Positions 3,783 through 64,000 of a DNA stretch of 64,000 nt are shown piece after piece. Each line of letters begins with the position of its first letter. Within the stretch, counting starts at the first letter, position 1. Both the position numbers and the translations under genes were made by a program. This stretch comes from Candidatus Sulfotelmatobacter sp. (GTDB lineage Bacteria; Acidobacteriota; Terriglobia; Acidiferrales; UBA7541). Location of the stretch: positions 25,292-89,291 of the forward strand of contig DASPSD010000031.1 in assembly GCA_035624115.1 (NCBI GenBank), given 5' to 3'. The notes under the pieces are model-generated. The model was not told the DNA's origin. It ran no database searches and was given only the letters and a program-made list of their open reading frames with translations.

Positions 3783-4421
3783 TTACCGGCTCAAGCTTTC
3801 ACGGTGGAAGAGCGCGGGTGCATAGATTTGCAGGGGCGCGGGGCGAGCGGTCGAGCCCCCTGCGCCGGGGCCGGGCGAGCCCGCGAGGCCCGCGATATTG
3901 CACTGCGCCGTGGTCGCCCCCATTACGATTTGCGGAACGGTCCAAAACGCGGGAGCGAATTCCCACGGGTCTGAGCCCTTGAACCAGCGGTTCATCCACA
4001 GGTGGTTCACGCCGATCACTGCCAGGCCCATCCCCGCGGAGAGCGAATAGACTCCGAAATTCGAAGGGCGCCTGCCAATCAAGAAACGCGTGAACCCGTC
4101 AGCTTCGAACGCGGTTCCGGTGTGGATGCCGTGAACCGTGGTGGCCGCATCGGCCATGCGCGCCAGCATCAACCCTGTGCCCATGGCGAATTCCGACTTG
4201 TGCTCGAGCGGGTAGGATGCGATGCGACGGAGCAGACTGCGCTCCTTTGCTGGGCGGCTGACCACAGCGGCGTTAGTGGCCGCCGAGGCAGTGCCGGAGA
4301 GATCGGCGGGGGGAGCCGGAGGAGTGGAGGCAAGGTTGAGAGTTGCGTTCTGCGCTCGCGCGATTCCCGTTGCGGAACTGATGGCCGCGGCAAATATCAA
4401 AATGGCCTTAGAAAACCTCAT
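3783..4421 (-). CDS. secreted hypothetical protein
   Basis: N-terminal signal peptide MRFSKAILIFAAAISSATGIARA|Q. No recognisable family. Confidence 0.55.
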   Translation of the reverse strand: MRFSKAILIFAAAISSATGIARAQNATLNLASTPPAPPADLSGTASAATNAAVVSRPAKERSLLRRIASYPLEHKSEFAMGTGLMLARMADAATTVHGIHTGTAFEADGFTRFLIGRRPSNFGVYSLSAGMGLAVIGVNHLWMNRWFKGSDPWEFAPAFWTVPQIVMGATTAQCNIAGLAGSPGPGAGGSTARPAPLQIYAPALFHRESLSR

Positions 4422-4547: not shown

Positions 4548-4732
4548 TGGCTCTGTTGAGATCCTCGCGAATTCGGCTGAGCCCCGGTGCTGGCGCGGGT
4601 TGTACCGGAATTGAAAACAAAGCGGGAGCAAGCTCCCGCACTCCAAAGGTCTCGGAGGCGGCGCGGAGAGTATGGGCAGCGGTTCGGAAATTGGCAGCGC
4701 GGGCACGGCATGCCGTGCCCCTACGAGAAACA
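4548..4732 (+). repeat. RepA repeat, copy 2 (extended form with left and right arms)
   Basis: Core hairpin plus a left arm shared with copy 24054 and a right arm (gggcagcg...ggcagcgcgggcacgg) shared with copies 6476 and 24054. Confidence 0.85.
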
Positions 4733-6370: not shown

Positions 6371-6475
6371 GTGCCTGCTCTCGGGGTTCGAAAGCCATGA
6401 GTGCCGATGCCATTACGGAGACCGACGCGGACACAGGTTTAGCTCAGGTAGTGAACTTGGCTGAAGCTGTGCCTA

Positions 6476-6612
6476 GATTGAGAACAAAGCGGGAGCAAGC
6501 TCCCGCACTCCAAAGATCTCGGAGGCGGTGCCTAGAACTCGGGCAGCGTCGTGGTAAGGGGCAGCGCGGGCACGGTCCGCCGGACTGCCGGTGGATGCCC
6601 CTACAGAGAAAA
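6476..6612 (+). repeat. RepA repeat, copy 3
   Basis: agattgagaacaaagcgggagcaagctcccgcactccaaagatctcgg plus the shared right arm. Confidence 0.85.
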
Positions 6613-6615
6613 GCG

Positions 6616-8157
6616 TCACCCCTTGCCCATGCCACGCGCGAGGCGGCTGTGCGTGCGTCCATAACCCAAATAAATGGCCATTCCGATGATGAGCCACACG
6701 ATCAAGCGCAGCCAGGTGGCCCGCGAGAGGCTCAGCATCAGAATCAAGGGGATTCCCATCCCGAGGATGGGGACCAGCGGCACGAGCGGCGCCTTGAATG
6801 GCCGGGGCAAATCCGGCCGGCGCACGCGCAAAATCCAAACGCCCGCGCTCACGATCGCAAAGGCAAGGAGCGTCCCGATCGAAGTCAGCTCACTCAGCAC
6901 ATTGATGGGAAGAAGACTCCCGAGCAGCGCAACGAAAAACCCCACGACGATGGTAGAGATCCACGGGGTGCGGAATCTTGGGTGCACGCGCCCGGCCCAG
7001 GGTGGCAGCAGGCCGTCGCGCGACATCGAGTATTGGACGCGGGATTGCCCCAAAAGCATGACGAGCATCGCCGAGGTGAGGCCCGCAAACGTGCCCAGCA
7101 TCACGAGCGTGCTGCCCCAGCTTGCGCCGGTGGCTTCAATTCCAAGCGCGACGGGCGCGGCCGTGTTCAGCTGGGTGTAGCTCACAACTCCCGTGAGCAT
7201 GGCACCCAGAGCGACGTACAAGACCGTACAAATCGCGAGCGAGCCCAGAATTCCGATGGGCATGTCTCGCTGCGGATTTCGCGCCTCCTGTGCGGCTGTG
7301 GAAACGGCGTCGAAGCCGATGTAAGCGAAAAAAATCACACCCGCACCGCGCGCTACGCCGGACCATCCGAATTGCCCGAACTTGCCCAGGTTCGGCGGAA
7401 TGAACGGGCGCCAGTGGGCCGCCGCGACCGACGGGTGCTGGAGAAGGAACGCCGCCGCAACAAAGATGAATGTGAGCACGGTGCCGACTTTGATGATCAC
7501 GATGGCGGAGTTGACGTTGGCGGACTCACGTATGCCCAGAACCAAAATCATCGTAATCAGCGCGGTCACAAGATAGGCAGGCAAGTCCATGATTCCGTGC
7601 GCATGCGGAAGTGTCTCGGGGCGGATCCCGGCATGATCGAGCAGCGGCTGGACCGTCGCAAGCGGCGACCATTTGCCGGCGTAGAAAACCAGGAGCGTGC
7701 CTGGAGTAGCGATGAGCTGGGGTGGGATTTGAATTCCGAAACTCTGCAGCAACGCCACCAGGTTGCCGCTCCAGCCAGCCGCCACGACCGCGTCGCCGAA
7801 GGCGTACTCGATGATGAGGTCCCAGCCGATAATCCAGGCAAAGATTTCGCCCAGGGTCGCATAGGCGTATGTGTACGCAGATCCGGCGACAGGAATCAGC
7901 GAAGCAAACTCGGCGTAGCAAAGACCGGCAAAGAAACAGCCGATTCCCGCAAAAATGAAAGAGAGGACGATCGCCGGGCCGGCAAAATTCGCCGCCACGG
8001 TTCCCGTCAGGACAAAGATTCCCGCGCCGATAATCGCGCCGATTCCCAGGGTGACCAGGTTCAGCGGGCCGAGCACGCGCTTCAGATCGGTTTCGCCCTG
8101 ATGGCGGGCTTCGTCCATCAGCGCTTCGAGCCGCTTGGTTGCCAGCAAATCAGTCAC
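6616..8157 (-). CDS. APC-superfamily amino acid permease (cationic amino acid transporter-like)
   Basis: LNLVTLGIGAIIGAGIFVLTG signature and about 12 or more TM helices. Start is uncertain: GTG 8157 (VTDLLATKRLEAL...) or ATG 8118. Confidence 0.85.
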   Translation of the reverse strand: MTDLLATKRLEALMDEARHQGETDLKRVLGPLNLVTLGIGAIIGAGIFVLTGTVAANFAGPAIVLSFIFAGIGCFFAGLCYAEFASLIPVAGSAYTYAYATLGEIFAWIIGWDLIIEYAFGDAVVAAGWSGNLVALLQSFGIQIPPQLIATPGTLLVFYAGKWSPLATVQPLLDHAGIRPETLPHAHGIMDLPAYLVTALITMILVLGIRESANVNSAIVIIKVGTVLTFIFVAAAFLLQHPSVAAAHWRPFIPPNLGKFGQFGWSGVARGAGVIFFAYIGFDAVSTAAQEARNPQRDMPIGILGSLAICTVLYVALGAMLTGVVSYTQLNTAAPVALGIEATGASWGSTLVMLGTFAGLTSAMLVMLLGQSRVQYSMSRDGLLPPWAGRVHPRFRTPWISTIVVGFFVALLGSLLPINVLSELTSIGTLLAFAIVSAGVWILRVRRPDLPRPFKAPLVPLVPILGMGIPLILMLSLSRATWLRLIVWLIIGMAIYLGYGRTHSRLARGMGKG

Positions 8158-14902: not shown

Positions 14903-14974
14903 GGGAACTTCAGGGGCTGAAGCCCCAGACATTCGAGATTTCGAATGTCGCGGTTGAAACCGCGACCCACAAAC
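14903..14974 (+). repeat. RepB hairpin repeat (ggggctgaagcccc + cgcggttgaaaccgcg)
   Basis: gggaacttcaggggctgaagcccc...gtcgcggttgaaaccgcgacccacaaa. Homologous copies lie at 20701 and 21721. Confidence 0.8.
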
Positions 14975-19185: not shown

Positions 19186-19237
19186 GGCGCGTTGTCTTCG
19201 GGGGCATCATACGGACCAGGGACACACTGCGTTCCCA

Positions 19238-19296
19238 TCGAAAACAAAGCGGGAGCCCTTCGGCTTCGCTCAGGACAAGCAAGCTCCCGCACTCCA
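19238..19296 (+). repeat. RepA repeat, copy 4, with a second unit nested in the hairpin loop
   Basis: gcgggagc-[ccttcggcttcgctcaggacaagca]-agctcccgcactccaaagg. Confidence 0.8.
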
Positions 19297-19324
19297 AAGG
19301 TCTTAGTCGCGCAGTTTCCTTAGA

Positions 19325-19870: not shown

Positions 19871-19917
19871 TCTTCTCTCCCTTACCATTTGAAATGGACC
19901 TTCACGCGTCAGTTGTG

Positions 19918-20008
19918 CCGACCGAGTCAAGCCTCGGTCGAGTGATTGGCTTTTCGTGCGCTGTCACGGGCGACAAAGCGGCGTCAAGCCGCCGCACTCC
20001 AGAAAAAC
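19918..20008 (+). repeat. RepC double-hairpin repeat, copy 2
   Basis: Near-identical to 2878-2968. Confidence 0.8.
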
Positions 20009-20155
20009 GGAGCCGCCCGAAGCCGCTGACAATTCTCTGCTCACGGCAGGAATGGAGTCAACCTATCGCAAGAGTGCAGCGTCGTCCCCCCGGCTTCTTG
20101 ACGTTTGGGCAGCGTGCGGTCACTATTCTCACTCGGGCAAGCGAGCCGCGAAGCG

Positions 20156-20700: not shown

Positions 20701-20777
20701 GGGAACTTCAGGGGCTGAAGCCCCGGGCGTTTGGGCATCGTAATGTCGCGGTTAAAACCGCGACCCACAAAGCGGGC
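20701..20777 (+). repeat. RepB hairpin repeat
   Basis: gggaacttcaggggctgaagcccc...gtcgcggttaaaaccgcgacccacaaagcggg. Confidence 0.8.
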
Positions 20778-21720: not shown

Positions 21721-21797
21721 GGGAACCTCAGGGGCTGAAGCCCAACGAATAGAAGCGGCTGAATGTCGCGGTTGAAACCGCGACCTACAAAGCGGGT
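21721..21797 (+). repeat. RepB hairpin repeat
   Basis: gggaacctcaggggctgaagccc...gtcgcggttgaaaccgcgacctacaaagcggg. Confidence 0.8.
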
Positions 21798-24053: not shown

Positions 24054-24258
24054 TGGCTCTGTTGAGATCCTCGCGAATTTGGCTCAGCCCCGATTCTGGC
24101 GCGCGTTGTACCGGAATTGAAAACAAAGCGGGAGCCCTTCGACTTCGCTCAGTACAAGCGAGCTTCCCCTGGCTATGCTCGGGGCAGGCCGCACTCCAAA
24201 GGTCTCGCGGGCGGCGCAAAGGAAATGGGCAGCGCTCCGGACAACGGCAGCGCGTGAA
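24054..24258 (+). repeat. RepA repeat, copy 5 (extended arms, doubly nested loop insertion)
   Basis: Left arm matches copy 4548. The loop carries ccttcgacttcgctcagtacaagcgagct plus a further insert before ...gccgcactccaaaggtctcg. Confidence 0.8.
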
Positions 24259-24362
24259 GGGATCGCTCTCTGCATGGCGCATCGCCGGCTGCGATTCGGT
24301 TCATGCGCTCGCACCAGAGGGCGGGTTGCCGGGGTTTGCTGCGGGTGGTAGGATGAAGGGCC

Positions 24363-33339: not shown

Positions 33340-34908
33340 ATGACTGAAGACCTCAAGCGTCACGATGGGCTGGAAGAGCTGCGGCGGCGCAGCGCCGAAG
33401 CCGAAGAAGGCGGCGGCAGAGAGCGCCGCGAGCGGCAGCACAAAGAAGGCAAATTGAGCGCGCGGGAGCGCATCGAGCTGCTGCTCGACGAAGGCACATT
33501 CGAGGAGCTCGACAAGTTCGTTCGGCACCGCTGCATCGATTTCGGAATGGAAGAGCAGCGGCCCGCGGGCGACGGCTTCATCACGGGCTTCGGCCGCATT
33601 GACGGGCGGCTCGTTTACGTCTTCGCGCAGGATTTTACCGTGTTCGGCGGCTCGCTTTCGGAAGCCAACGCCTCGAAAATCACGAAAATCATGGACCTGG
33701 CGATCCGCCAGGGCGCGCCGGTCATCGGGTTGAACGATTCCGGCGGAGCGCGGATTCAGGAAGGAGTGATGTCGCTCGCGGGCTACGCAGATATTTTCCT
33801 GCGCAACACGCTCTCAAGCGGCGTGATTCCGCAGATTAGCGCCATCATGGGGCCGTGCGCGGGCGGCGCGGTCTATTCGCCCGCGATCACCGATTTTATT
33901 TTCATGACGCGCGACACTTCCTACATGTTCGTCACCGGCCCGGACGTGATCAAGACGGTCACCCACGAGGAAGTGACCAAGCACGAGCTCGGCGGCGCCA
34001 TGACGCACAACGCCACGAGCGGCGTAGCCCATTTCATTGCCGCCGACGACGCCGAATGCCTGGCAATGATCCGCGAGCTATTGAGCTACATCCCCTCGAA
34101 TAATCTCGAGGACCCGCCGCGCCGCGCAACCTCGGATCCATGGGACCGCGCCAGTCCCGCGTTGAATACTCTCGTGCCAGAGGATCCGCTCAAGCCCTAC
34201 GACATCAAGGACGCGATTCAAGGCGTGGCGGACGACGGCGAATTTTTCGAGGTGCACGAGCACTATGCGAAAAATATCGTGGTGGGATTCGCGCGGCTGG
34301 AAGGGCGTCCCGTGGGAATCGTCGCGAACCAACCGGCGTTTCTCGCAGGTGTGCTCGATATCAACGCGTCGGTGAAAGGCGCTCGGTTCGTCCGCTTCTG
34401 CGACGCCTTCAATATTCCGCTCATCACGTTCGAGGACGTTCCGGGATTCCTGCCCGGAACACAGCAAGAGTTCGGAGGAATTATTCGTCACGGCGCAAAA
34501 TTGCTGTTCGCGTTTGCCGAAGCAACGGTGCCGAAAATTACCGTCATCACGCGCAAAGCCTACGGCGGAGCCTATTGCGTGATGGCTTCCAAACACATCC
34601 GCACCGACATGAATTTCGCGTGGCCGACGGCTGAAATCGCCGTGATGGGTCCCGAAGGCGCGGTGAATATCGTGTACAAGCGCGAGATCGACCGCGCCGC
34701 AGAGGGCGAGCGCGAAAAGTTGCGCCGCGAAAAAATCGAGGACTTCAGGACAAGGTTCGCAAATCCTTACGTGGCCGCCGAGCGCGGCTATATCGACGCG
34801 GTCATCGAGCCTTCGGAAACCCGCGCGAAACTCATCACGGCCTTGCGCTCGCTGGAAACGAAGCGCGACCTCAATCCCCGCAAAAAACACGGCAATATCC
34901 CGCTCTGA
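33340..34908 (+). CDS. pccB: acyl-CoA carboxylase carboxyltransferase (propionyl-CoA carboxylase beta / methylmalonyl-CoA carboxyltransferase 12S)
   Basis: [18 protein letters not shown]...[13 protein letters not shown]...[13 protein letters not shown]...[13 protein letters not shown]...ends KKHGNIPL*. Confidence 0.9.
34845..34908 (+). repeat. direct repeat, left copy (intact 3' end of pccB)
   Basis: 64 nt recur at 41126-41190. The 33-nt identical core is 34855-34887. Confidence 0.85.
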
Positions 34909-35084: not shown

Positions 35085-38051
35085 GTGAGCGATTATCTGG
35101 CGCGGATTACCGGCGCAGGCATTTCGACGGAAGCGAATGAAACGCTCGACCCAAACGATTGGAAGGGCTTTCGCGCGCAGGGACACCGCATGCTCGACGA
35201 TATCCTCGATTACATCGAAACGATTCGCGACCGCCCCGTGTGGCAGCCGATGACAGACGAGGTTCGAGCGCGGATGCGCGGCACTTTTCCGAGCCAGCCA
35301 GCCGATCTCGCCGAAGTCCATGGTGAATTTCTGCGGGATATTCTGCCTTTCGCCGTGGGCAACGTTCATCCGGGTTTCATGGGGTGGGTGCATGGCGGAG
35401 GGACGCCGGCCGGCATGCTGGCGGAGATGCTCGCTGCGGGACTGAACGCCAACGTGGGAGGCCGCGATCAAGCGCCGCTCGAACTCGAGCGTCAAGTGGT
35501 CCGCTGGATGCGCGAGATCTTTGGCTTTCCGGAGGGCGCGACGGGCCTATTTGTCACCGGAACTTCCATGGCGAATTTCATCGCCGTTACGATCGCCCGA
35601 GATGCGGCCCTCGGCTTTGATGTGCGCCGCCGCGGTGTCGCCGCCAAAGAAAAGCAGCTCACCGCTTACGCCTCAACCGGAGTTCACGGCTGCATCGCAA
35701 AGGCCTTGGATCTTTCCGGCATCGGCAGCGATGCGCTGCGGCTGATCCGAACCGACAATCGCTACCGCGTCGATCTCGCCACGCTGGAAAAGGCCATCCG
35801 GTGGGATCGCGATGCCGGGTTGACTCCCTTCCTGGTAGTGGGGACCGCAGGGACGGTGGACACAGGGGCCATCGACGATCTCGCGGGCCTCGCCGATCTA
35901 TGCCAGCGCGAGAAGCTCTGGTTTCACGTGGATGGAGCTTACGGGGCGCTGGCCAGGCTCGCTCCCGATCTCGCTCCAAGACTCGAGGGCATCGAACGCG
36001 CCGATTCACTCGGATTCGATTTTCACAAATGGGGACAAGTGCCCTACGATGCCGGCTTCCTTTTAGTGCGCGATAACGCGCTGCACTTGAACGCTTTCTC
36101 CACCGGCGCGGCATACCTCACGCGGTCCGATCGGGGATTGGCTGCGGGTTCACCCTGGCCCTGCGACTTCGGGCCGGATCTCTCGCGGGGCTTTCGAGCG
36201 CTGAAGACCTGGTTCACTTTGAAGGTTTACGGCACAGACGCGCTGGGAGCGGCGATTTCGCGCACCTGCGAATTAGCGCGCTACCTCGAAAGCCGCATTG
36301 CCGAGACACAGGAGCTCGAGCTGATGGCTCCCGTGGAACTCAATATCGTCTGTTTCCGTTACCGGGCGGAGGAGCCGGACCGCGTCAACGAAAAAATTAT
36401 CATCGGCCTGCAAGAGTCCGGGATCGTTGCGCCGTCTTCCACGGTGATCGGAGGGCGAGTGGCGATTCGAGCAGCAATCGTCAACCATCGGACAGGCCGG
36501 GCGGAGATCGATGCGCTGGTGCAAAATACCCTCTCTCTGGGCCGCTCTCTCCAATACACTCTGCTGCAAGGAAAGGCCGCGCAGCAGACCGCGGAGTTTG
36601 ATCTTCCGGCGGATTCGAAAACAGCCTTGCAGACGGTGGAGCAACAGTTGGTGTCGCAGCCGGGCTCTGTCGCCCTGCGGTTCCTGCGCGCCGGGATCCT
36701 CGAAAAAATGGGCCGGAAGGCGGAAGCCAGGAAGGCCTATATTGACTTGCTCCGCCTCGAGCCATCTCATCTAGGCGCGCTGAACCATCTCGGAAAACTT
36801 CTGGCCGCTGCCGGAAAGAAAATTGCGGCGCGGACGGTCTATTCCGAAGCGATTGCGCGGCATCCCGATGACCCCATGAGCCGCGTAAATTTTGCCGCCC
36901 TTCTAATAGAGGCCGGGGAGCCCGAGAAAGCTCGCGAGCACCTGGAGCACGCCCTGAAAATTGATTCCACGTGCCGGCTCGCCCATGCCGGCTTAGGGTT
37001 CGCGCTTGCGGACCTGGGAGATCCGGAGGGTGCTTCCGAGCACCGGCAAATCGCCTATCGCGGGCACTGCGTGATACCAGTGGAGTATTGCGGCGAGCAG
37101 CCGCCGATCACGGTCTTGGAGCTGGTCACCACCACCGGAGGGGGCGTCCGGGTGGAGAGCTTTTTGAGCGAGGGCATGTTCCAAAAATACCTCGTCGCCA
37201 CGGAGTTCTACGACTCGAGCACGACCTTGCCGCCTCATCAACTCGTAGTCAACGCCATCGGGGATGCCGATACGGCTCGGGCCGCACTGGACGGCGCCGA
37301 AATTCTGCTCCGCTATACAACCGCGCCTGTAATTAATCCGCCGGCAGCGGTCCTCGGGACGGGCCGTTGCGATGTTGCAAGGCGCCTTTCCGGGTTGCCA
37401 GGCGTGATTACTCCGCGGACTTTAATCTTTTCGCGCGAATCACTCGCCGGATCCGACGCCCGCACAATGCTCGATCGTCATGGATTCGAGTTTCCTCTTC
37501 TGCTGCGAACGCCCGGCTTTCACGGAGGCGAACACTTTCTGCGAGTGGAAAGTTTCGATGAACTTCCTGCGGCGCTTCAAGGGCTTCCGGGCCGTGATCT
37601 AAACGTGATCCAGTACCTCGATGCGCGCGGGGCTGACGGAAAGTGGCGCAAGTACCGCGTCATGATGATCGATGGACGGCTCTATCCGCTGCACGTGGCA
37701 ATCTCGCGCCATTGGAAAATCCACTATTTCAGCGCCGAGATGGCAGACAATGCGGAGCACCGCGCTGAGGACGCCAAGTTCCTCGAGGGCATGGCCGGCG
37801 TGCTTGGGCCCCGCGCCCTGACGGCACTCGAGCGAATTCAAAATATCCTCGGGCTCGATTATGGCGGCATTGATTTTGGTTTGAACGAATCCGGCGATAT
37901 CCTGCTCTTCGAAGCAAACGCCACGATGGCCGTTGTTCCATCCGACGCAGACTCCCGATGGGACTATCGCAATCCTACGGTGGAACGAATTAATCAAGCT
38001 GTGTTGCGGATGTTGATTGCGAGGGCAGGGGTGAACAACGAAGCTCGATGA
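35085..38051 (+). CDS. fusion protein: group II PLP-dependent amino-acid decarboxylase + TPR repeats + ATP-grasp-like ligase domain
   Basis: aa 1 to ~495 form a complete Pyridoxal_deC-type domain (HPGFMGW, TGTSMANF, HVDGAYG, PLP-Lys motif SLGFDFHKWG). aa ~530-680 are TPR (AEARKAYIDLLRLEPSH...). aa ~690-988 are ATP-grasp-like (FPLLLRTPGFHGG...WRKYRVMMIDGRLYP...LDYGGIDFGLNESGDILLFEANATM). Confidence 0.8.
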   Translation: MSDYLARITGAGISTEANETLDPNDWKGFRAQGHRMLDDILDYIETIRDRPVWQPMTDEVRARMRGTFPSQPADLAEVHGEFLRDILPFAVGNVHPGFMGWVHGGGTPAGMLAEMLAAGLNANVGGRDQAPLELERQVVRWMREIFGFPEGATGLFVTGTSMANFIAVTIARDAALGFDVRRRGVAAKEKQLTAYASTGVHGCIAKALDLSGIGSDALRLIRTDNRYRVDLATLEKAIRWDRDAGLTPFLVVGTAGTVDTGAIDDLAGLADLCQREKLWFHVDGAYGALARLAPDLAPRLEGIERADSLGFDFHKWGQVPYDAGFLLVRDNALHLNAFSTGAAYLTRSDRGLAAGSPWPCDFGPDLSRGFRALKTWFTLKVYGTDALGAAISRTCELARYLESRIAETQELELMAPVELNIVCFRYRAEEPDRVNEKIIIGLQESGIVAPSSTVIGGRVAIRAAIVNHRTGRAEIDALVQNTLSLGRSLQYTLLQGKAAQQTAEFDLPADSKTALQTVEQQLVSQPGSVALRFLRAGILEKMGRKAEARKAYIDLLRLEPSHLGALNHLGKLLAAAGKKIAARTVYSEAIARHPDDPMSRVNFAALLIEAGEPEKAREHLEHALKIDSTCRLAHAGLGFALADLGDPEGASEHRQIAYRGHCVIPVEYCGEQPPITVLELVTTTGGGVRVESFLSEGMFQKYLVATEFYDSSTTLPPHQLVVNAIGDADTARAALDGAEILLRYTTAPVINPPAAVLGTGRCDVARRLSGLPGVITPRTLIFSRESLAGSDARTMLDRHGFEFPLLLRTPGFHGGEHFLRVESFDELPAALQGLPGRDLNVIQYLDARGADGKWRKYRVMMIDGRLYPLHVAISRHWKIHYFSAEMADNAEHRAEDAKFLEGMAGVLGPRALTALERIQNILGLDYGGIDFGLNESGDILLFEANATMAVVPSDADSRWDYRNPTVERINQAVLRMLIARAGVNNEAR

Positions 38052-39688: not shown

Positions 39689-41116
39689 ATGAAATCCAAT
39701 TCAAGCTTGGTAGATCAGAGATTTCGGCGGGCCCTCGCCCTCCAAAAGCAGGGCCACACCGTGGAGGCTAGAAACGAATACCTGAAGGTGCTTGAAATCG
39801 ATCCTTCGCACGGGCCAGCGCTCAACAACGTTGGGAGCCTCTTGCTCGCCGCGGGAAACCTTCCAGCCGCGCGAATCGCGTATGCCGAGGCCGTCGCCCG
39901 GCATCCGAATGATCCCGTGAGCCGGTCGAATTTAGGGAATCTGCTGCGCGAAGAAGGTGAGCTGGCCGCCGCACGCGAGCACTATGAGCACGCTCTACGC
40001 GTGGATCCGAATCTCGTGCAGGCGCATGAGGGTTTGTCCTATGTGCTGGCGGACCTGGGAGATGAAGAGCGCGCCGCATGGCACCGCCGCAAAGCCTTTG
40101 AACATCGTTTCCTGATCGCCTTGCCCTATCTCGGAAAAGGCAAGGGAATATCGGTGCTGCAGCTCGTGTCGTCCAACGGCGGCAACGTGCGAACGCGGGA
40201 ATTTCTCGATGAGCGCGTGTTCCGGACCTTTGTTGTCCTTCCAGAGTTCTACGATCGAAAGGTTGCCTTGCCTCCGCATCAAATGGTATTCAATGCCATC
40301 GGTGACGCCGACGTCGCAGCAGCGGCGCTCACGGCTGCCGAGCCTTTTCTCGCTCTCACTCAAGCACCCGTCATCAACCCGCCCTCGGCCGTGCTCGCTA
40401 CGCGCCGGCTCGACATATCCAGGCGCCTTTCGGGATTGCCGGGGGTGGTTACCCCCAGAACGGTCGCCCTGCCGCGAGAGATTCTCACTGCTCCCGACGC
40501 CGAGGCCGCGCTCGCCGCACAGGGATTCCGATTCCCCGTCCTATTGCGAACGCCCGGTTTCCACACCGGCGACCATTTTGTGCGGGCCAAAATTCCCGAT
40601 GAGCTTCCTGCCGCGCTCGCGCAGCTTCCCGGGCAACAATTGCTGGCAATCCAGTACCTCGAGGCACGCGGGACCGATGAAAAGTGGCGCAAGTACCGAG
40701 TGATGATGATCGATGGGAAGCTCTACCCGCTGCACGTGGCCCTCTCCTCGAATTGGAAGGTTCACTATTTCAGCTCCGAAATGGCGGATAATTCCCTTGG
40801 CCGCGCCGAGGAAGCCCAGTTCCTGGCCAATATGGCCGGTGTCCTCGGGCCGCGCGTCTTGGACGCTCTCACGCGGATTCAGAAAACTCTCGGCCTCGAT
40901 TACGGTGGAATCGATTTCGGATTGAACCGGGACGGCGACCTGGTGCTCTTCGAGGCGAATGCCACGATGGTGGTCCTTTCCCCCGGCGCGGACCCCCGCT
41001 GGGACTACCGTCGCACTGCGGTGGAGCAAATTTACCAAGCGGTGGCGAACATGCTGCTGGCCAGAGCGAACGCCGGTGCGCAGCACACGAATTGGAGTTC
41101 GGCCGGTGCGGATTGA
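39689..41116 (+). CDS. TPR + ATP-grasp-like protein, paralog of the C-terminal half of 35085..38051
   Basis: Aligns along its whole length with aa ~520-988 of the fusion protein (e.g. WRKYRVMMIDGKLYPLHVA, LDYGGIDFGLNRDGDLVLFEANATM). The start could also be upstream (track ORF starts at 39524). Confidence 0.8.
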   Translation: MKSNSSLVDQRFRRALALQKQGHTVEARNEYLKVLEIDPSHGPALNNVGSLLLAAGNLPAARIAYAEAVARHPNDPVSRSNLGNLLREEGELAAAREHYEHALRVDPNLVQAHEGLSYVLADLGDEERAAWHRRKAFEHRFLIALPYLGKGKGISVLQLVSSNGGNVRTREFLDERVFRTFVVLPEFYDRKVALPPHQMVFNAIGDADVAAAALTAAEPFLALTQAPVINPPSAVLATRRLDISRRLSGLPGVVTPRTVALPREILTAPDAEAALAAQGFRFPVLLRTPGFHTGDHFVRAKIPDELPAALAQLPGQQLLAIQYLEARGTDEKWRKYRVMMIDGKLYPLHVALSSNWKVHYFSSEMADNSLGRAEEAQFLANMAGVLGPRVLDALTRIQKTLGLDYGGIDFGLNRDGDLVLFEANATMVVLSPGADPRWDYRRTAVEQIYQAVANMLLARANAGAQHTNWSSAGAD

Positions 41117-41125
41117 GCCTTGTTG

Positions 41126-41190
41126 GCGCTTGCTTGAAACGAAGCGCGACCTCAATCCCCGCAAAAAAAAACGGCAATATCCTGATCTAG
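41126..41190 (+). repeat. direct repeat, right copy (degenerate pccB 3' remnant)
   Basis: Core 41136-41168 is identical to 34855-34887. An extra A and substitutions destroy the KKHGNIPL reading. Confidence 0.85.
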
Positions 41191-59593: not shown

Positions 59594-60934
59594 CTACACC
59601 CTTGTCGGCGCATGCTCCCGTGCAAACTGGGCCAGGCGTTCGGCCAGGCCCGGGCGCGTCAATTCCTGGACTTCATAGGTGACTCGAAGATAGGGCTTGT
59701 TCAACTTGATCACTCGAGCCAAGTCGACGGGTGTGGCGACCAGCACGAAGTCGCACGGCACTCGGTTGATGGTTTCTTCGAGCTCATGCCTTTGCATGGC
59801 GCTGTAGCCCATTGCGGGCAGCAAATTTGTGAGCTGCCGGAATTGCTCGAAGCTGCTTTGGATGGAGCCGACCGCGTACGGGCGGGGATCCACCAGCTCC
59901 GCCGCGCCAAACTCTCTGGCCGCAACCACACCGGCGCCGTAGGGCATCTCGCCGTGCGTGAGCGTGGGCCCGTCTTCCACCACGAGGACGCGGCTGCCTT
60001 TGATGAGTTCGGGGGCGGAAACAACCACTTGGCTGGCAGCTTCTATGATCACGGCATGGGGATTGTTGTTGCGGATGTTTTCCCGCACTTTTTGCACATT
60101 CAGCGGTGAGGCCGTATTCACCTTGTTGATCACCACCACGTCGGCCCGGCGAAGATTCACCTCTCCCGGAAAATACGAGAGCTCATGGCCCGCCCGCAAC
60201 GGGTCGGCCACGACGATCTCCAGGTCGGATTCGTAGAAGGGCGTGTCGTTGTTGCCGCCATCCCAGAGAATCACATCCGCCTCTTTTTCGGCTTGCCGCA
60301 GGATCCTCTCGTAGTCCACACCTGCGTACACAACCGTCCCCTCGCATAGATGAGGTTCATATTCCTCGCGCTCTTCGATGGTGCATTGTTGAGCGTCCAG
60401 ATCGTCCATTGTCGCGAATCGCTGAACCGCTTCTGCTTCCAGTTGTCCGTAGGGCATGGGATGGCGGACCACCACGGGCCTCAGTCCATTCCGCATCAAT
60501 TCGGAAGCCACCAGCCGCGCGACGGGGCTTTTGCCGCATCCGGTTCGCACCGCACACACGGAGACTATGGGGACTACAGATTTAAGTTGTGTGTGCTCGG
60601 TCCCCAGCAACCAGAAGTCCGCGCCCGCAGCTACCGCGCGCGAGGCCAGATGCATCAAGTTGAGGTGCGAAATATCGCTGTAGGAAAATACGACGGCATC
60701 TACCCTCAACTGGCGGATCAATTCCTCCAGCTTGTTTTCCGGAAAGATTGGGATGCCGTCCGGATACGCGGGGCCTGCCAGCGCCGAGGGATATCGCCGG
60801 CTCGCGATGCCCGGAATCTGGGTGGCGGTGAACCCGACGACTCGAAACTGCTGCTGATTTCGAAAAACTACGTTGAAATTATGGAAGTCTCTTCCTGCTG
60901 CGCCAAGGATCAGTATGTTCTTTGAATTGTCCAT
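59594..60934 (-). CDS. COG2403-type predicted P-loop NTPase (cyclic 2,3-diphosphoglycerate synthetase-like family)
   Basis: ILILGAAGRDFHNFN...VCAVRTGCGKSPV (P-loop)...VVVRHPMPYG. First gene of the OTC/CK/OAT operon, 2-nt gap to argF. Confidence 0.65.
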   Translation of the reverse strand: MDNSKNILILGAAGRDFHNFNVVFRNQQQFRVVGFTATQIPGIASRRYPSALAGPAYPDGIPIFPENKLEELIRQLRVDAVVFSYSDISHLNLMHLASRAVAAGADFWLLGTEHTQLKSVVPIVSVCAVRTGCGKSPVARLVASELMRNGLRPVVVRHPMPYGQLEAEAVQRFATMDDLDAQQCTIEEREEYEPHLCEGTVVYAGVDYERILRQAEKEADVILWDGGNNDTPFYESDLEIVVADPLRAGHELSYFPGEVNLRRADVVVINKVNTASPLNVQKVRENIRNNNPHAVIIEAASQVVVSAPELIKGSRVLVVEDGPTLTHGEMPYGAGVVAAREFGAAELVDPRPYAVGSIQSSFEQFRQLTNLLPAMGYSAMQRHELEETINRVPCDFVLVATPVDLARVIKLNKPYLRVTYEVQELTRPGLAERLAQFAREHAPTRV

Positions 60935-61155: not shown

Positions 61156-61194
61156 GGGCGTGTAGCTCAGCTGGGAGAGCACCTGCTTTGCAAG
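61156..61194 (+). pseudogene. 5' half of tRNA-Ala(UGC), interrupted after the anticodon loop
   Basis: GGGCGTG-TA-GCTC-AGCTGGGA-GAGC-A-CCTGC-TTTGCAA-G. I found no T-arm or 3' acceptor strand (CACGCCC) downstream in the window. Confidence 0.7.
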
Positions 61195-61294
61195 TAAGCG
61201 GGTTAAATCACATAAGTGCCGCATCTGGTGTCGCTTGCGCGGACTCGCGCGGTGCGACCAACCTCTTGAGTTGGACTGAAGTTGGACCGAAAGT
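61194..61294 (+). repeat. 101-nt element, copy A (abuts the tRNA-Ala fragment)
   Basis: GTAAGCGGGTTAAATCAC...GTTGGACCGAAAGT. By hand alignment, 13 mismatches and no gaps against 63524-63624. Confidence 0.8.
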
Positions 61295-61470: not shown

Positions 61471-62490
61471 CTATCCGATCCCCCACAGTCGCCGGGCCTC
61501 CTCGGCGATGATGTCCGGCCTCTCTTCAGGAAAGAACGCTTTGGCACCCTCGACGCGACGGACGCCGCGCGAACGCGGAAAGTTGTGGTCCAACCAGTCC
61601 GGGCTGGCCGGCGAGAACACCGTGTCGCCGGTGCCCCAGACGATCCGCACCGGTACGCGCGAGCGGTGGAGCGCGGGCTCAATCCCGGCAAACGGATTCT
61701 GCTCCAGAGCAATCGCGTAGGCCTCGCACTGGGCCTTGCGGCGTGGCGAGCTAACGAGCGGCGCGAAGTAGGTGTCCACCGCTTCATCGGTCGGATTGGT
61801 CGGCTCGACGTATGCGAGCCGGGCAATCCCTTTGGGCGATCGGGCCAGATTCTTATCAGCAACCATTGGCGCGAGCAACTGATCGACGAACGTGCCGGCA
61901 TGCGCCATTGCGATCACGGGCAGGAAAGACTTCGCCGGACTGTCGTTGGCGACTTCGCAGTTCGTGAGCAGCAGCGTTCGGACGCGCGATGGATAGCGGG
62001 CCACGAACAGTTGGGCGACCTGGCCACCGCTGTCGTTGCCGACGAGATCGACTGTGGAGATGGACAAACGGTCGAGCAGTGAGGTCAGCATCTCGACCTG
62101 CTGGCCTGGCGCTAGGTCCTGTCCGTCCGGAATTTCGGAGTACCCGAGTCCCATGAAGTCCGCGGCGATACACCGCCGGTACGGCGAGAGGCGCTCGAGC
62201 GCGCCGCGCCACTGGAACCCATTGAGTGGGAACCCGTGCAGGAACAGTGCGGTCCGGCCCGATCCCCGCTCCACATACGCGACCCGGCCGAATCGGAGCT
62301 CAGCGAACTGGCGCATGGCGTGGAACGCCGTCTCGTCGATCGGGCCTGCCGGTGTCGCCGCGACCGATGGGTGGACGCCGCGCATGCTGCAGCCGCCCAT
62401 GGCAGCCGACGCGATCGCGCCGGCGGTAAGTTCCATGAACTGTCTGCGATCCATGTTCCCATTAGTGATCTTGTTTCGTCTCTCCGTCAA
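61471..62490 (-). CDS. alpha/beta-hydrolase with Tat-type signal peptide
   Basis: MDRRQFMELTAGAIASAAMGG (twin-Arg), LFLHGFPLNGFQWR, nucleophile elbow GNDSGG. Confidence 0.8.
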   Translation of the reverse strand: MTERRNKITNGNMDRRQFMELTAGAIASAAMGGCSMRGVHPSVAATPAGPIDETAFHAMRQFAELRFGRVAYVERGSGRTALFLHGFPLNGFQWRGALERLSPYRRCIAADFMGLGYSEIPDGQDLAPGQQVEMLTSLLDRLSISTVDLVGNDSGGQVAQLFVARYPSRVRTLLLTNCEVANDSPAKSFLPVIAMAHAGTFVDQLLAPMVADKNLARSPKGIARLAYVEPTNPTDEAVDTYFAPLVSSPRRKAQCEAYAIALEQNPFAGIEPALHRSRVPVRIVWGTGDTVFSPASPDWLDHNFPRSRGVRRVEGAKAFFPEERPDIIAEEARRLWGIG

Positions 62491-62540: not shown

Positions 62541-63371
62541 ATGCGTGGGATCGACTCGCGCTCTCCGCCGCCTCCCGCGTCGGCGACTCACTTCGGCGCG
62601 CTGCTCCGCGAGTGGCGCGCTGCGCGACGCGTGAGCCAACTCGATCTTGCGCTGGCGGCCGATATCTCGTCCCGGCATCTGAGCTGCGTCGAGACCGGCC
62701 GAGCACAGCCGAGCCGCAAGATGGTGTCGCGGTTGGCGGCCGCGCTGGCCATTCCACTGCCCGAGCGCAATGTTCTGTTGGTCGCAGCGGGCTACGCGCC
62801 CGGATACCGCGAGTCGGGGCTGGCAGCGCCAGAGCTTGAGCGCGCCCGACGCGCGATCGAGCTCATCCTGCGCCAGCAGGAGCCGTATCCTGCGATCGTC
62901 GTAAGCCAGCATTGGGATCTGCTGGCGGCAAACCAGGGCGCGAAGCGCCTCTTCGGCTGGATGCTCGGCGGCCCATCGCCACACACCAACATCATGCGGC
63001 TAAGCTTCGACCCGGCCGGCCTGCGCCCGTTCGTCGTGAACTGGGAGGCGGCGGCATTGGATCTCGTCCGACGCCTCCACGGCGATATCGCAGCGGCGCC
63101 GTCGGACACCCGCGCACGGGCCCTCTTGTGCGACATCCTCGCATATCCTGGCGTGCCACCGCAGTGGCACGACCGTGATCTGGGCGCACTGCAGGCGCCG
63201 CTGTCGACCATCACGTATCGCAAGGACGGCATCAACCTCACGTTTTTCTGGACGATCACGACGTTCGGCACGCCGCAGGAGGTGACGCTCGAGGAATTGC
63301 GCATCGAGTGCTCGTTCCCCACCGATGAGCCAACCGACCGGATGTGCCGCGATCTCGCCGCGGCGCTGTGA
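62541..63371 (+). CDS. XRE-family HTH regulator with MmyB-like C-terminal domain
   Basis: LLREWRAARRVSQLDLALAADISSRHLSCVETGRAQPS HTH. Divergent from the hydrolase gene. Confidence 0.8.
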   Translation: MRGIDSRSPPPPASATHFGALLREWRAARRVSQLDLALAADISSRHLSCVETGRAQPSRKMVSRLAAALAIPLPERNVLLVAAGYAPGYRESGLAAPELERARRAIELILRQQEPYPAIVVSQHWDLLAANQGAKRLFGWMLGGPSPHTNIMRLSFDPAGLRPFVVNWEAAALDLVRRLHGDIAAAPSDTRARALLCDILAYPGVPPQWHDRDLGALQAPLSTITYRKDGINLTFFWTITTFGTPQEVTLEELRIECSFPTDEPTDRMCRDLAAAL

Positions 63372-63523
63372 GTCACGGCACGGTGAGCGTATTCGGCCCG
63401 CTCATAGCGGACGGCGAGATGCGATGGGATGTGCCCTTTCTCGCCAATTTTGTTCCGGTCGGCTCGGCAGTGAGATGAGTCTCCCAACTATAACCATCCG
63501 AGCCTGGTCCTCCTGCGCGCGAG

Positions 63524-63624
63524 GTAAGCAGGTTAAATCATACAAGTTCCGCATCTGGCGTCGCTTACACGGAGCCGCGCGGTGCAACCAAACTCTTGAA
63601 TTGGACTGACGTTGGACCGAAAGT
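63524..63624 (+). repeat. 101-nt element, copy B
   Basis: GTAAGCAGGTTAAATCAT...GTTGGACCGAAAGT, in direct orientation relative to copy A. Confidence 0.8.
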
Positions 63625-63868: not shown

Positions 63869-64000
63869 ATGCCTCAAGCCGCTACACCCCGCCTTCCTGC
63901 CGAAGAACTGGCCAACAGCCTTACACACGGCGTCGGTTTGGTTCTGAGTATCGTAGGCTTCGCAACTTTGGTTTCTCTCGCGGTGATGCGTGGCAGCGCG
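63869..64000 (+). CDS. hemolysin III/PAQR-family membrane protein, 3'-truncated by window edge
   Basis: MPQAATPRLPAEELANSLTHGVGLVLSIVGF... (ANSxTHGxG signature). Confidence 0.7.
   Translation, partial: MPQAATPRLPAEELANSLTHGVGLVLSIVGFATLVSLAVMRGSA

Follow-up and report, generated by a model that had tools for sequence, protein, structure and literature searches.

A tRNA-Ala 5′ half in an acidobacterial genome as the putative attachment site of a small integrase-less unit in reversed orientation

The 64,000-nucleotide stretch of contig DASPSD010000031.1 of Candidatus Sulfotelmatobacter sp. analyzed here (the window) contains, near its right end, the 5′ half of a tRNA-Ala(UGC) gene joined to a conserved element of about 100 nt. 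We propose that the tRNA half is the left attachment site (attL) of a small integrase-less unit, or of two accreted units, inserted site-specifically at the anticodon loop of the tRNA gene in reversed orientation, and we assign this reading a probability of about 80%. It is carried by direct observations: a repeat of the tRNA 5′ half that brackets the insert, an intact tRNA gene located past the end of the window, recurrence of the arrangement throughout a family of loci, contigs without an insert on the 5′ side, and units that are nearly identical although their flanks are unrelated.

The tRNA half and the intact gene

The tRNA half (GGGCGTGTAGCTCAGCTGGGAGAGCACCTGCTTTGCAAG) is composed of the acceptor strand, the D arm, the 5′ strand of the anticodon stem, and the loop TTTGCAA, followed by G39. 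ARAGORN detected no tRNA gene across the whole window, and an Rfam scan of the window returned no tRNA, intron, or other family at gathering-score or E-value thresholds. The only tRNA signal was a sub-threshold Rfam match at 61156–61227, with 18.6 bits against a gathering score of 29. An earlier reading of the window from its sequence alone (the sequence-only reading) had recognized the fragment as the 5′ half of tRNA-Ala and had reported the T-arm and the 3′ acceptor strand as missing from the remaining 2.8 kb, and both statements hold.

Contigs overlapping the window were retrieved by identity to the protein of a regulator gene situated between the tRNA half and the window's end (Table 1). 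Public contigs and loci fetched for comparison are designated by L-numbers; L001 differs from the window by 1 mismatch in an 11,460-nt overlap, and its positions are converted to window-equivalent ones by adding 52,540. The matching contigs pass base 64,000 via a gene for an HlyIII protein and reach an intact tRNA-Ala(UGC) gene about 1.24 kb past the window's final base. The sequence-only reading had proposed to look there for an intact tRNA-Ala, and its statement that no junction regenerates the tRNA was an artifact of the window edge. An intact gene in this place is expected of integrase-mediated insertion by an element that brings in the 5′ part of the tRNA gene. The sequence occurs in the samples ERZ27251322, ERZ27251241, JGI 3300017975, SRR7004337, and SRR7004342.

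Nucleotides 1–39 of the tRNA and the GT that precedes them are identical in the fragment and in the intact gene (L002 7671–7709). Since the intact tRNA starts with the same 39 nt, a segment of 4.05 kb is bracketed by a direct repeat, with the full gene on the right. The segment encodes an alpha/beta hydrolase, a helix-turn-helix (HTH) regulator of the MmyB type, the HlyIII protein, and a 69-residue open reading frame (ORF). The interruption is not an intron, because the downstream 3′ half is part of a complete gene that has its own 5′ half and promoter region.

Table 1 Features of the tRNA-Ala locus; positions above 64,000 are window-equivalent
Feature	Position	Strand	Basis or remark
Displaced tRNA-Ala(UGC) 5′ portion, nt 1–39	61156–61194	+	putative attL, target side; identical to nt 1–39 of the intact tRNA, L002 7671–7746
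Core-like inverted repeat CCTGC-TTTGCAAGTAA-GCGGG	61182–61202	.	anticodon stem 5′ strand, loop, 4 extra nt, and element-borne copy of the 3′ strand
Element copy A, probable P′ arm of the attachment site	61195–61294	+	repeat search, family alignment
Tandem 11-mers AGTTGGACTGA, AGTTGGACCGA, candidate arm-type integrase sites	61269–61290	+	motif count versus shuffles
Alpha/beta hydrolase, cargo	61471–62490	-	Pfam PF00561, PF12697
HTH regulator with MmyB-like ligand-binding domain, cargo	62541–63371	+	Pfam PF17765, PF13560
CCTGC-GCGCGAG-G before copy B, core-like remnant without tRNA half	63512–63524	.	unrelated 7-mer
Element copy B, probable solo P′ arm	63525–63624	+	sub-lineage other than copy A
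Tandem 11-mers of copy B	63599–63620		
HlyIII start, cargo; gene leaves the window	63869–64000	+	Pfam scan, contigs matching the window
Intact tRNA-Ala(UGC)	65242–65317 (L001 12702–12777)		ARAGORN and Rfam, 68.2 bits
Tyrosine integrase, 409 aa	65253–66482 (L002 7682–8911)	-	PF00589; directly after the intact tRNA

In the proposed mechanism, the incoming DNA would carry a promoter and nucleotides 1–39 of the tRNA at its right end. Integration would rebuild a functional tRNA at the right junction, the intact gene of Table 1, and strand the original 5′ half at the left one. The left junction would consist of the host promoter, the host 5′ half, and an element arm of about 100 nt (P′), and the right junction of an element arm of about 200 nt that includes the promoter (class P), the element-borne 5′ half, and the host 3′ half. 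Both arms bear GTTGGACCGA-type 11-mers, the probable sites of a tyrosine integrase acting in trans. The restored target would read as the flank ...GCCAGCAGT followed by the complete tRNA or, in another form, as ...AACTAGCCAGCAGT followed by GGGCGTG...TTTGCAAGCAGGGGGTCGCC. The circular junction would join the class-P arm and the 5′ half to TAAGCGGG..., and a circle or tandem junction would read, in another form, as ...ATCATAGAGTTGCGGT followed by GGGCGTG...TTTGCAAGTAAGCGGGTTAAATC. Rebuilding the gene from an element-borne 5′ part would require a promoter from the element as well, and the putative promoter of the rebuilt tRNA is a conserved, element-borne arm that includes a TTAGAAT box.

Recurrence and mobility of the units

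The ~100-nt element occurs twice in the window, as the sequence-only reading had noticed: 61194–61294 (copy A) and 63524–63624 (copy B) share 87% identity across 101 nt. When one genome per species was scanned with the 3′ end of the element as the search pattern, 37 loci were obtained. Thirty-five belong to metagenome-assembled genomes of the Acidobacteriota type (Acidoferrales/Acidiferrales, gp1, gp2), including one labelled Limnocylindria, and two Bacteroidales loci are chance matches. The recurrence of the element is not due to chance, because at least 35 further genomic loci carry it; the same spread speaks against a plain segmental duplication of two loci. The 5′ half of tRNA-Ala(UGC) directly precedes the element in 28 of 38 copies and that of tRNA-Arg(UCU) in one; six copies are preceded by the loop and part of the stem only, and three, including copy B of the window, by no tRNA sequence. 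Two pattern scans of IMG/VR gave one chance coding match and nothing more, and in PLSDB the tRNA portion alone was matched and the element was not found.

Mean identity within the family is 85% over the 78 element columns outside the search pattern, and the copies diverge completely right after GGACCGAAA. The conserved blocks are AAGTGCCGCATCTGGTGTCGCTTAC, GGTGCAACC, and the tandem 11-mers at the end of the element. GCAGG is conserved throughout the family, and the three nucleotides before it are variable (TAA, AAA, TCA, TAT, TGA, CAC). Diverged relatives found by profile search in L145 and L067 retain TGGTGTCGCTTAC and the tandem repeats as TTGTACCGA / TTATACCGA; the arm copy of L067 is inverted and marks the far end of a 2.5-kb unit that has the usual orientation. 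The ~100-nt arm is used at tRNA-Arg(UCU) in oriented L010 (930–1070) and in L039 (176 and 7556–7632). The anticodon stem of that tRNA, TCTGC, resembles the tRNA-Ala stem, and its loop, CTTCTAA, differs.

The complete arrangement of a 5′ half with the element, 3.7–4.4 kb of DNA, and an intact tRNA-Ala is present in L008, L014, L032, and L034, with cargo other than that of the window, namely a MacB-type permease and PadR, or a permease pseudogene and DinB. Tandem tRNA 5′ halves occur in L009, L019, L025, L033, and L042. The 3.86-kb unit of L034 (308–4181) is 99.69% identical to that of L014 and 99.9% identical to that of L032. The matches start exactly 5 nt ahead of the 5′ half and stop exactly 23 nt past the intact tRNA; the flanks cannot be aligned, and the three contigs belong to different GTDB species representatives. 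The same unit in differing genomic contexts is, as judged from sequence comparison, evidence of mobility, and we infer that the unit may still be able to move.

Contigs unoccupied on the 5′ side exist for the family, and the breakpoint coincides with the repeat. L067 has an intact tRNA behind the upstream flank that it shares with the occupied L019, and the two contigs are 100% identical over 331 nt, up to tRNA position 39. In the same way, the left and right flanks of L034 are matched by L073 and L102. A metagenome scan for the TTTAGAAT box followed by tRNA nucleotides 1–46 returned more than 120 contigs, 115 of them scorable, and the tRNA is intact in 113 of the 115 scorable loci with a TTTAGAAT-type promoter. 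Downstream of its intact tRNA, oriented L067 holds two tRNA-Ala 3′ fragments, at 1590–1640 and 4001–4180, which shows that tandem 3′-type islets are present on this contig that is unoccupied on the 5′ side.

The sequence-only reading had also listed a disrupted tRNA pseudogene among its options. Plain decay would have produced it by segmental duplication or illegitimate recombination, with the 101-nt repeats as a local duplication, and both the distance of just 2.3 kb between copies A and B and the absence of a recombinase gene between the repeats would suit such an origin. We nevertheless give it next to no credence, as it is contradicted by the breakpoints, by the spread of the family, and by the 99.7%-identical unit in unrelated flanks: the repeat starts 2–5 nt from the 5′ end of the tRNA and stops at position 39 in many independent genomes, and copies A and B represent different sub-lineages of a family found at 35 or more loci.

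Copy B has ATCATACAAGTTCC in common with the lineage of L012, L014, L029, L032, and L034, and copy A lacks it. Copy B is not a local duplicate, because its sub-lineage differs from that of copy A. The sequence upstream of copy B was compared with tRNA and with the class-P and other arm classes, and no similarity was found. Elsewhere, a deletion between the 12-nt repeat GAGAGCACCTGC in the pseudo-arm of class P and the real tRNA accounts for some partial junctions, and L012 retains the pair of class-P 11-mers upstream. Such a deletion fails to explain copy B.

Probable attachment-site arms, core-like site, and integrases

Transcription of the 5′ half and the element from the native promoter into a structured or regulatory RNA would explain why the element is conserved and the neighboring DNA is not, and a tRNA-derived structured RNA was one of the options of the sequence-only reading. 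The upstream region kept by the fragment and the possible anticodon-arm-like hairpin would agree with it. However, fold energies of the two copies on the + strand do not differ significantly from those of shuffled sequences (z = -0.95 and +0.38). RNAalifold of 35 distinct copies gave weak consensus structures (-11 and -14 kcal/mol) and no compensatory pairs on either strand, and a two-sequence alifold of copies A and B did not support an RNA structure. The only long hairpin is broken by the substitutions between A and B, Rfam has no match, and the element is also found without a tRNA half and, in its diverged form, at the far end of the 2.5-kb unit of L067, where it is inverted. We therefore regard a functional RNA as very improbable; the element probably acts at the DNA level.

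The 11-mer AGTTGGACYGA forms a tandem pair at the end of each ~100-nt element. L001 contains 6 matches against 0.36 expected, a number reached by none of 200 shuffles, and 472 kb of unoccupied tRNA-Ala loci showed no enrichment. A further 11-mer is located 184 nt upstream of the intact tRNA (window-equivalent 65058), in the same place as in most class-P arms. The class-P arm is a conserved sequence of about 200 nt that stands before every rebuilt tRNA and every array-internal 5′ half. In this arm, two GGACCGA motifs are paired at about -184, the TTAGAAT box precedes the tRNA by about 15 nt, and the tRNA 5′ half and anticodon arm recur in degenerate form (GAGAGCACCTGC-AAACAGA-GCAGGTGCTC). The leftmost fragments have upstream regions that are unlike the class-P arm and match those of unoccupied genes, as expected of reversed integration. 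A sigma-70 consensus scan of the region gave no promoter match.

Because RNA covariation is absent and the tandem 11-mers recur in the opposite arm, the element is most likely an integrase-binding P′ arm. Its blockwise conservation at the sequence level fits protein-binding DNA, and a tyrosine integrase provided in trans would probably use the 11-mers as its arm-type binding sites. The degenerate tRNA-Ala-like half is located about 45–100 nt upstream of the rebuilt tRNA (L001 12600–12660; arms of L008, L014, L033, and L034) and may represent a secondary site, a terminator, or what is left of an older junction.

The putative core site is marked by a CCTGC 12 nt upstream of both copies, complementary to GCGGG within copy A and GCAGG within copy B, a pairing that the sequence-only reading had described correctly. 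The CCTGC/GCAGG hairpin is best read as the inverted core-type half-sites of a recombination site.

Another arm family, with no relation to the first (CACGAC...CCATCC...GGGGAATCTGCTTCTCGCTC), is found after 5′ halves of tRNA-Ala and after one of tRNA-Pro(UGG), and with an inverted loop (TTGCAAA) it also follows an inverted tRNA-Ala 3′ half beside an integrase. Its sites are L114 73–240, L017 ~6470–6640, L009 2881, L025 200, L007 ~870–1000, and L030 1480–1640. The unit of L114 is about 1 kb long, and its small ORFs are toxin-antitoxin-like by eye.

Among the fetched loci, integrase genes or fragments are located beside the element only in L006, L010, L030, and L031, and no gene families other than cargo recur next to it. 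The integrase of L010 reads straight into the tRNA-Arg half that precedes the element and belongs to a family of 653 homologs of about 378 aa. Together with an excisionase-like HTH_17 gene, the 378-aa integrase is positioned about 20 nt upstream of an intact tRNA-Arg(UCU) in L044, L045, and L179 and of an intact tRNA-Ala(UGC) in L046 and L048. These autonomous elements have the reversed orientation and occupy the two tRNAs that also supply the 5′ halves in front of the ~100-nt element, and their left ends are more than 10 kb away, outside the fetched loci. The integrase of L178, a 91% identical member of the family, adjoins an inverted tRNA-Ala 3′ part in the usual orientation; an apparent likeness of the L178 arm to the 100-nt element was not confirmed by nhmmer.

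In the metagenome sample, an integrase is located just upstream of the tRNA in 9 of 46 loci and just downstream in 12 of 39, so the tRNA-Ala gene is a hot spot on both sides. That both orientations are used may be due to the near-palindromic anticodon arm (CCTGCT-TTGCA-AGCAGG). The recombinase that acts on the units described here is likely a tyrosine integrase working in trans; no particular integrase could be linked to the arm when all fetched loci were searched.

The 409-aa integrase gene next to the intact tRNA has no stop codon until almost the whole tRNA-Ala has been read antisense, and its tail ...VDVAGIEPATPCLQSRCSPS is tRNA antisense. A 75% identical homolog in L098 overlaps the tRNA in the same manner. 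The integrase gene is followed by a 103-aa ORF and by a contig end that reads as a transposase (of the IS3 type by eye).

With this integrase abutting the tRNA, the locus could be an integron-like platform, in which the resident enzyme captures integrase-less cassettes, the 5′ half and the 100-nt element form the cassette site, and the array would be transcribed from the tRNA promoter. In keeping with such a platform, no integrase is present in any unit whose two ends are both visible, some loci contain arrays of at least two units, and L008 has a remnant of another integrase at the same place. However, units are present in L014, L032, and L034 with no integrase beside the tRNA, and L098 has its 409-aa-type integrase by the tRNA and no unit within 9 kb upstream. 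The 11-mers are absent near the 409-aa integrase, most cargo genes are oriented away from the tRNA promoter, and unrelated arm families are mixed within arrays. An integron-like platform is thus distinctly improbable.

Several results weigh against reversed, site-specific insertion of an integrase-less unit at the window's locus. No integrase, excisionase, or recombinase was found inside the 4.05-kb segment from 61195 to the intact tRNA, and no recombinase in the whole window, so the unit would be non-autonomous or decayed. The 409-aa integrase is the only one nearby; it is placed on the other side of the tRNA, in the usual 3′-type position, and no 11-mers are close to it. The arm that belongs to the 378-aa integrases themselves is devoid of 11-mers, and none of the genes neighboring these integrases occur next to the element. 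Compared with the tRNA, the element has its GCAGG displaced by 4 nt, an unusual trait for the core of a tyrosine recombinase. Copy B, which has an unrelated 7-mer and no tRNA half, is not predicted by simple tandem integration. No unoccupied counterpart of the window's own locus was found via homologs of the flanking gene for a 446-aa protein (59594–60934); its relatives with 88–89% identity have other neighbors and no tRNA-Ala there. Three contigs with relatives of 92–93% identity (L169, L176, and L177) all end 45–83 nt upstream of the gene. Their breaks fall just short of the expected position of the tRNA fragment, as if the repeat halted assembly.

A tentative and rather doubtful extension of the proposal is a trans-mobilized family of integrase-less units of ~2.5–6.6 kb in Acidobacteriota, which would form arrays in the anticodon loop of tRNA-Ala(UGC), occasionally of tRNA-Arg(UCU), and insert in either orientation by means of the near-palindromic arm. 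Such units would carry a promoter and the 5′ half, or the 3′ half, as needed, and would constitute a tRNA-anchored cassette system with double-stranded attachment sites.

Relation to known systems and other repeats

Integrative elements with reversed target orientation at tRNA genes were reportedly described by Zhao and Williams in 2002. In the classification of Williams from 2002, classical islands and prophages are said to cross over in the anticodon loop and to carry the 3′ part of the tRNA. The window's unit has in common with such 3′-type islands the crossover in the anticodon stem-loop, whose stem provides inverted core-type sites, as well as the presumed use of a tyrosine integrase and tandem accretion. 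Elements of the 3′ type also occupy this tRNA-Ala, and the diverged 100-nt arm of L067 is positioned at the far end of one. In contrast to the classical islands, the repeat in the window corresponds to nucleotides 1–39 instead of the 3′ part, and the insert is located upstream of the functional gene.

Non-autonomous elements flanked by attachment sites and mobilized by the integrase of a related element are known as the cis-mobilizable elements (CIMEs) of Streptococcus and as mobilizable genomic islands. The units described here resemble them in having conserved attachment-site arms on both sides and no internal recombinase, and they also occur in tandem with integrase-bearing elements (L006, L010). 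Unlike these systems, the unit has no conjugation or mobilization genes, and its mobilization in trans is putative.

The small integrase-less units of one to three genes, arrayed at one site by a promoter, are also reminiscent of integron cassettes. However, there is no IntI-type integrase and no attC hairpin, and the site is a double-stranded tRNA-derived core with long arms. Identity with an integron was rejected because the adjacent integrase is inconsistent across loci and the element has no significant hairpin. Group I introns in anticodon loops of bacterial tRNAs likewise interrupt the tRNA at the anticodon arm. In contrast to them, the break follows position 39 and is not within the loop, and cargo genes on both strands lie in between; a group I intron was rejected, as Rfam has no intron match and the 3′ half exists only inside a complete gene 4 kb away.

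Recombination with the 5′-distal part of a tRNA gene is a documented, less frequent variant (PMC6563490), and reversed orientation also occurs in some archaeal viruses and plasmids, according to works cited there. As in elements of the 5′-distal type, a direct repeat of the tRNA 5′ part brackets the insert, and the right junction has an intact gene rebuilt from the element-borne 5′ part. Such elements would have to bring a promoter, whose counterpart here would be the conserved TTAGAAT-box arm. Autonomous relatives with excisionase and integrase genes reading into the tRNA are present in the clade. The unit described here differs from the 5′-distal elements in being without an integrase and very small (~4 kb, possibly two accreted units), and in a P arm where the tRNA 5′ half and its anticodon arm are present a second time in degenerate form.

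The structure of the locus is that of the 5′-distal minority mode, except that the unit lacks an integrase of its own. The mechanism is an ordinary one in an uncommon orientation, and no new type of element is involved. The proposal of the sequence-only reading that the element inserts at anticodon arms stands, and the element belongs to a recurrent family; its suggestion of a new type does not hold, given the documented 5′-distal variant. Nothing on the arm family came up when the literature was searched for integrative elements at acidobacterial tRNA genes, and this family and its abundance in Acidobacteriota appear to be undescribed.

The puzzle of the half tRNA is thus solved without a new mechanism, and the case exemplifies how the edge of a window can mislead its reader. 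The rarely reported reversed orientation recurs at tRNA-Ala in one clade of soil acidobacteria, where a single tRNA-Ala gene hosts several element families, small integrase-less units, and tandem arrays. The locus is a practical marker for recently transferred genes in Acidobacteriota, and it offers a natural test case of how an integrase chooses the target orientation at a nearly symmetrical site.

The window contains further repeats and one other RNA signal. On the - strand, an Rfam match to nrdJ RNA at 63333–63412 stays below threshold (22 bits, with 40.3 required; E = 0.5); it overlaps the regulator gene at its end and probably reflects chance. Families of short interspersed intergenic repeats with AGCAAGCTCCCGCACTCCAAAGGTCT in common are located at 1807–1921, 4548–4715, 6468–6582, 19237–19312, and 24054–24261, and look like genome repeats of the repetitive extragenic palindromic (REP) type. 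A 71-nt repeat with two GC-rich hairpins (GGGGCTGAAGCCCC ... GTCGCGGTTGAAACCGCGAC) is present in three copies, at 14903–14973, 20701–20771, and 21721–21791, and another repeat forms a pair at 2874–2982 and 19914–20023. Two 300-nt stretches about 3 kb apart, 37608–37907 and 40649–40948, are 75% identical, and short intergenic motifs have a similar spacing of ~3 kb (34845–34906, 37884–37908, and 41126–41188). The 300-nt repeat and the spacing of the motifs suggest tandem paralogous genes.

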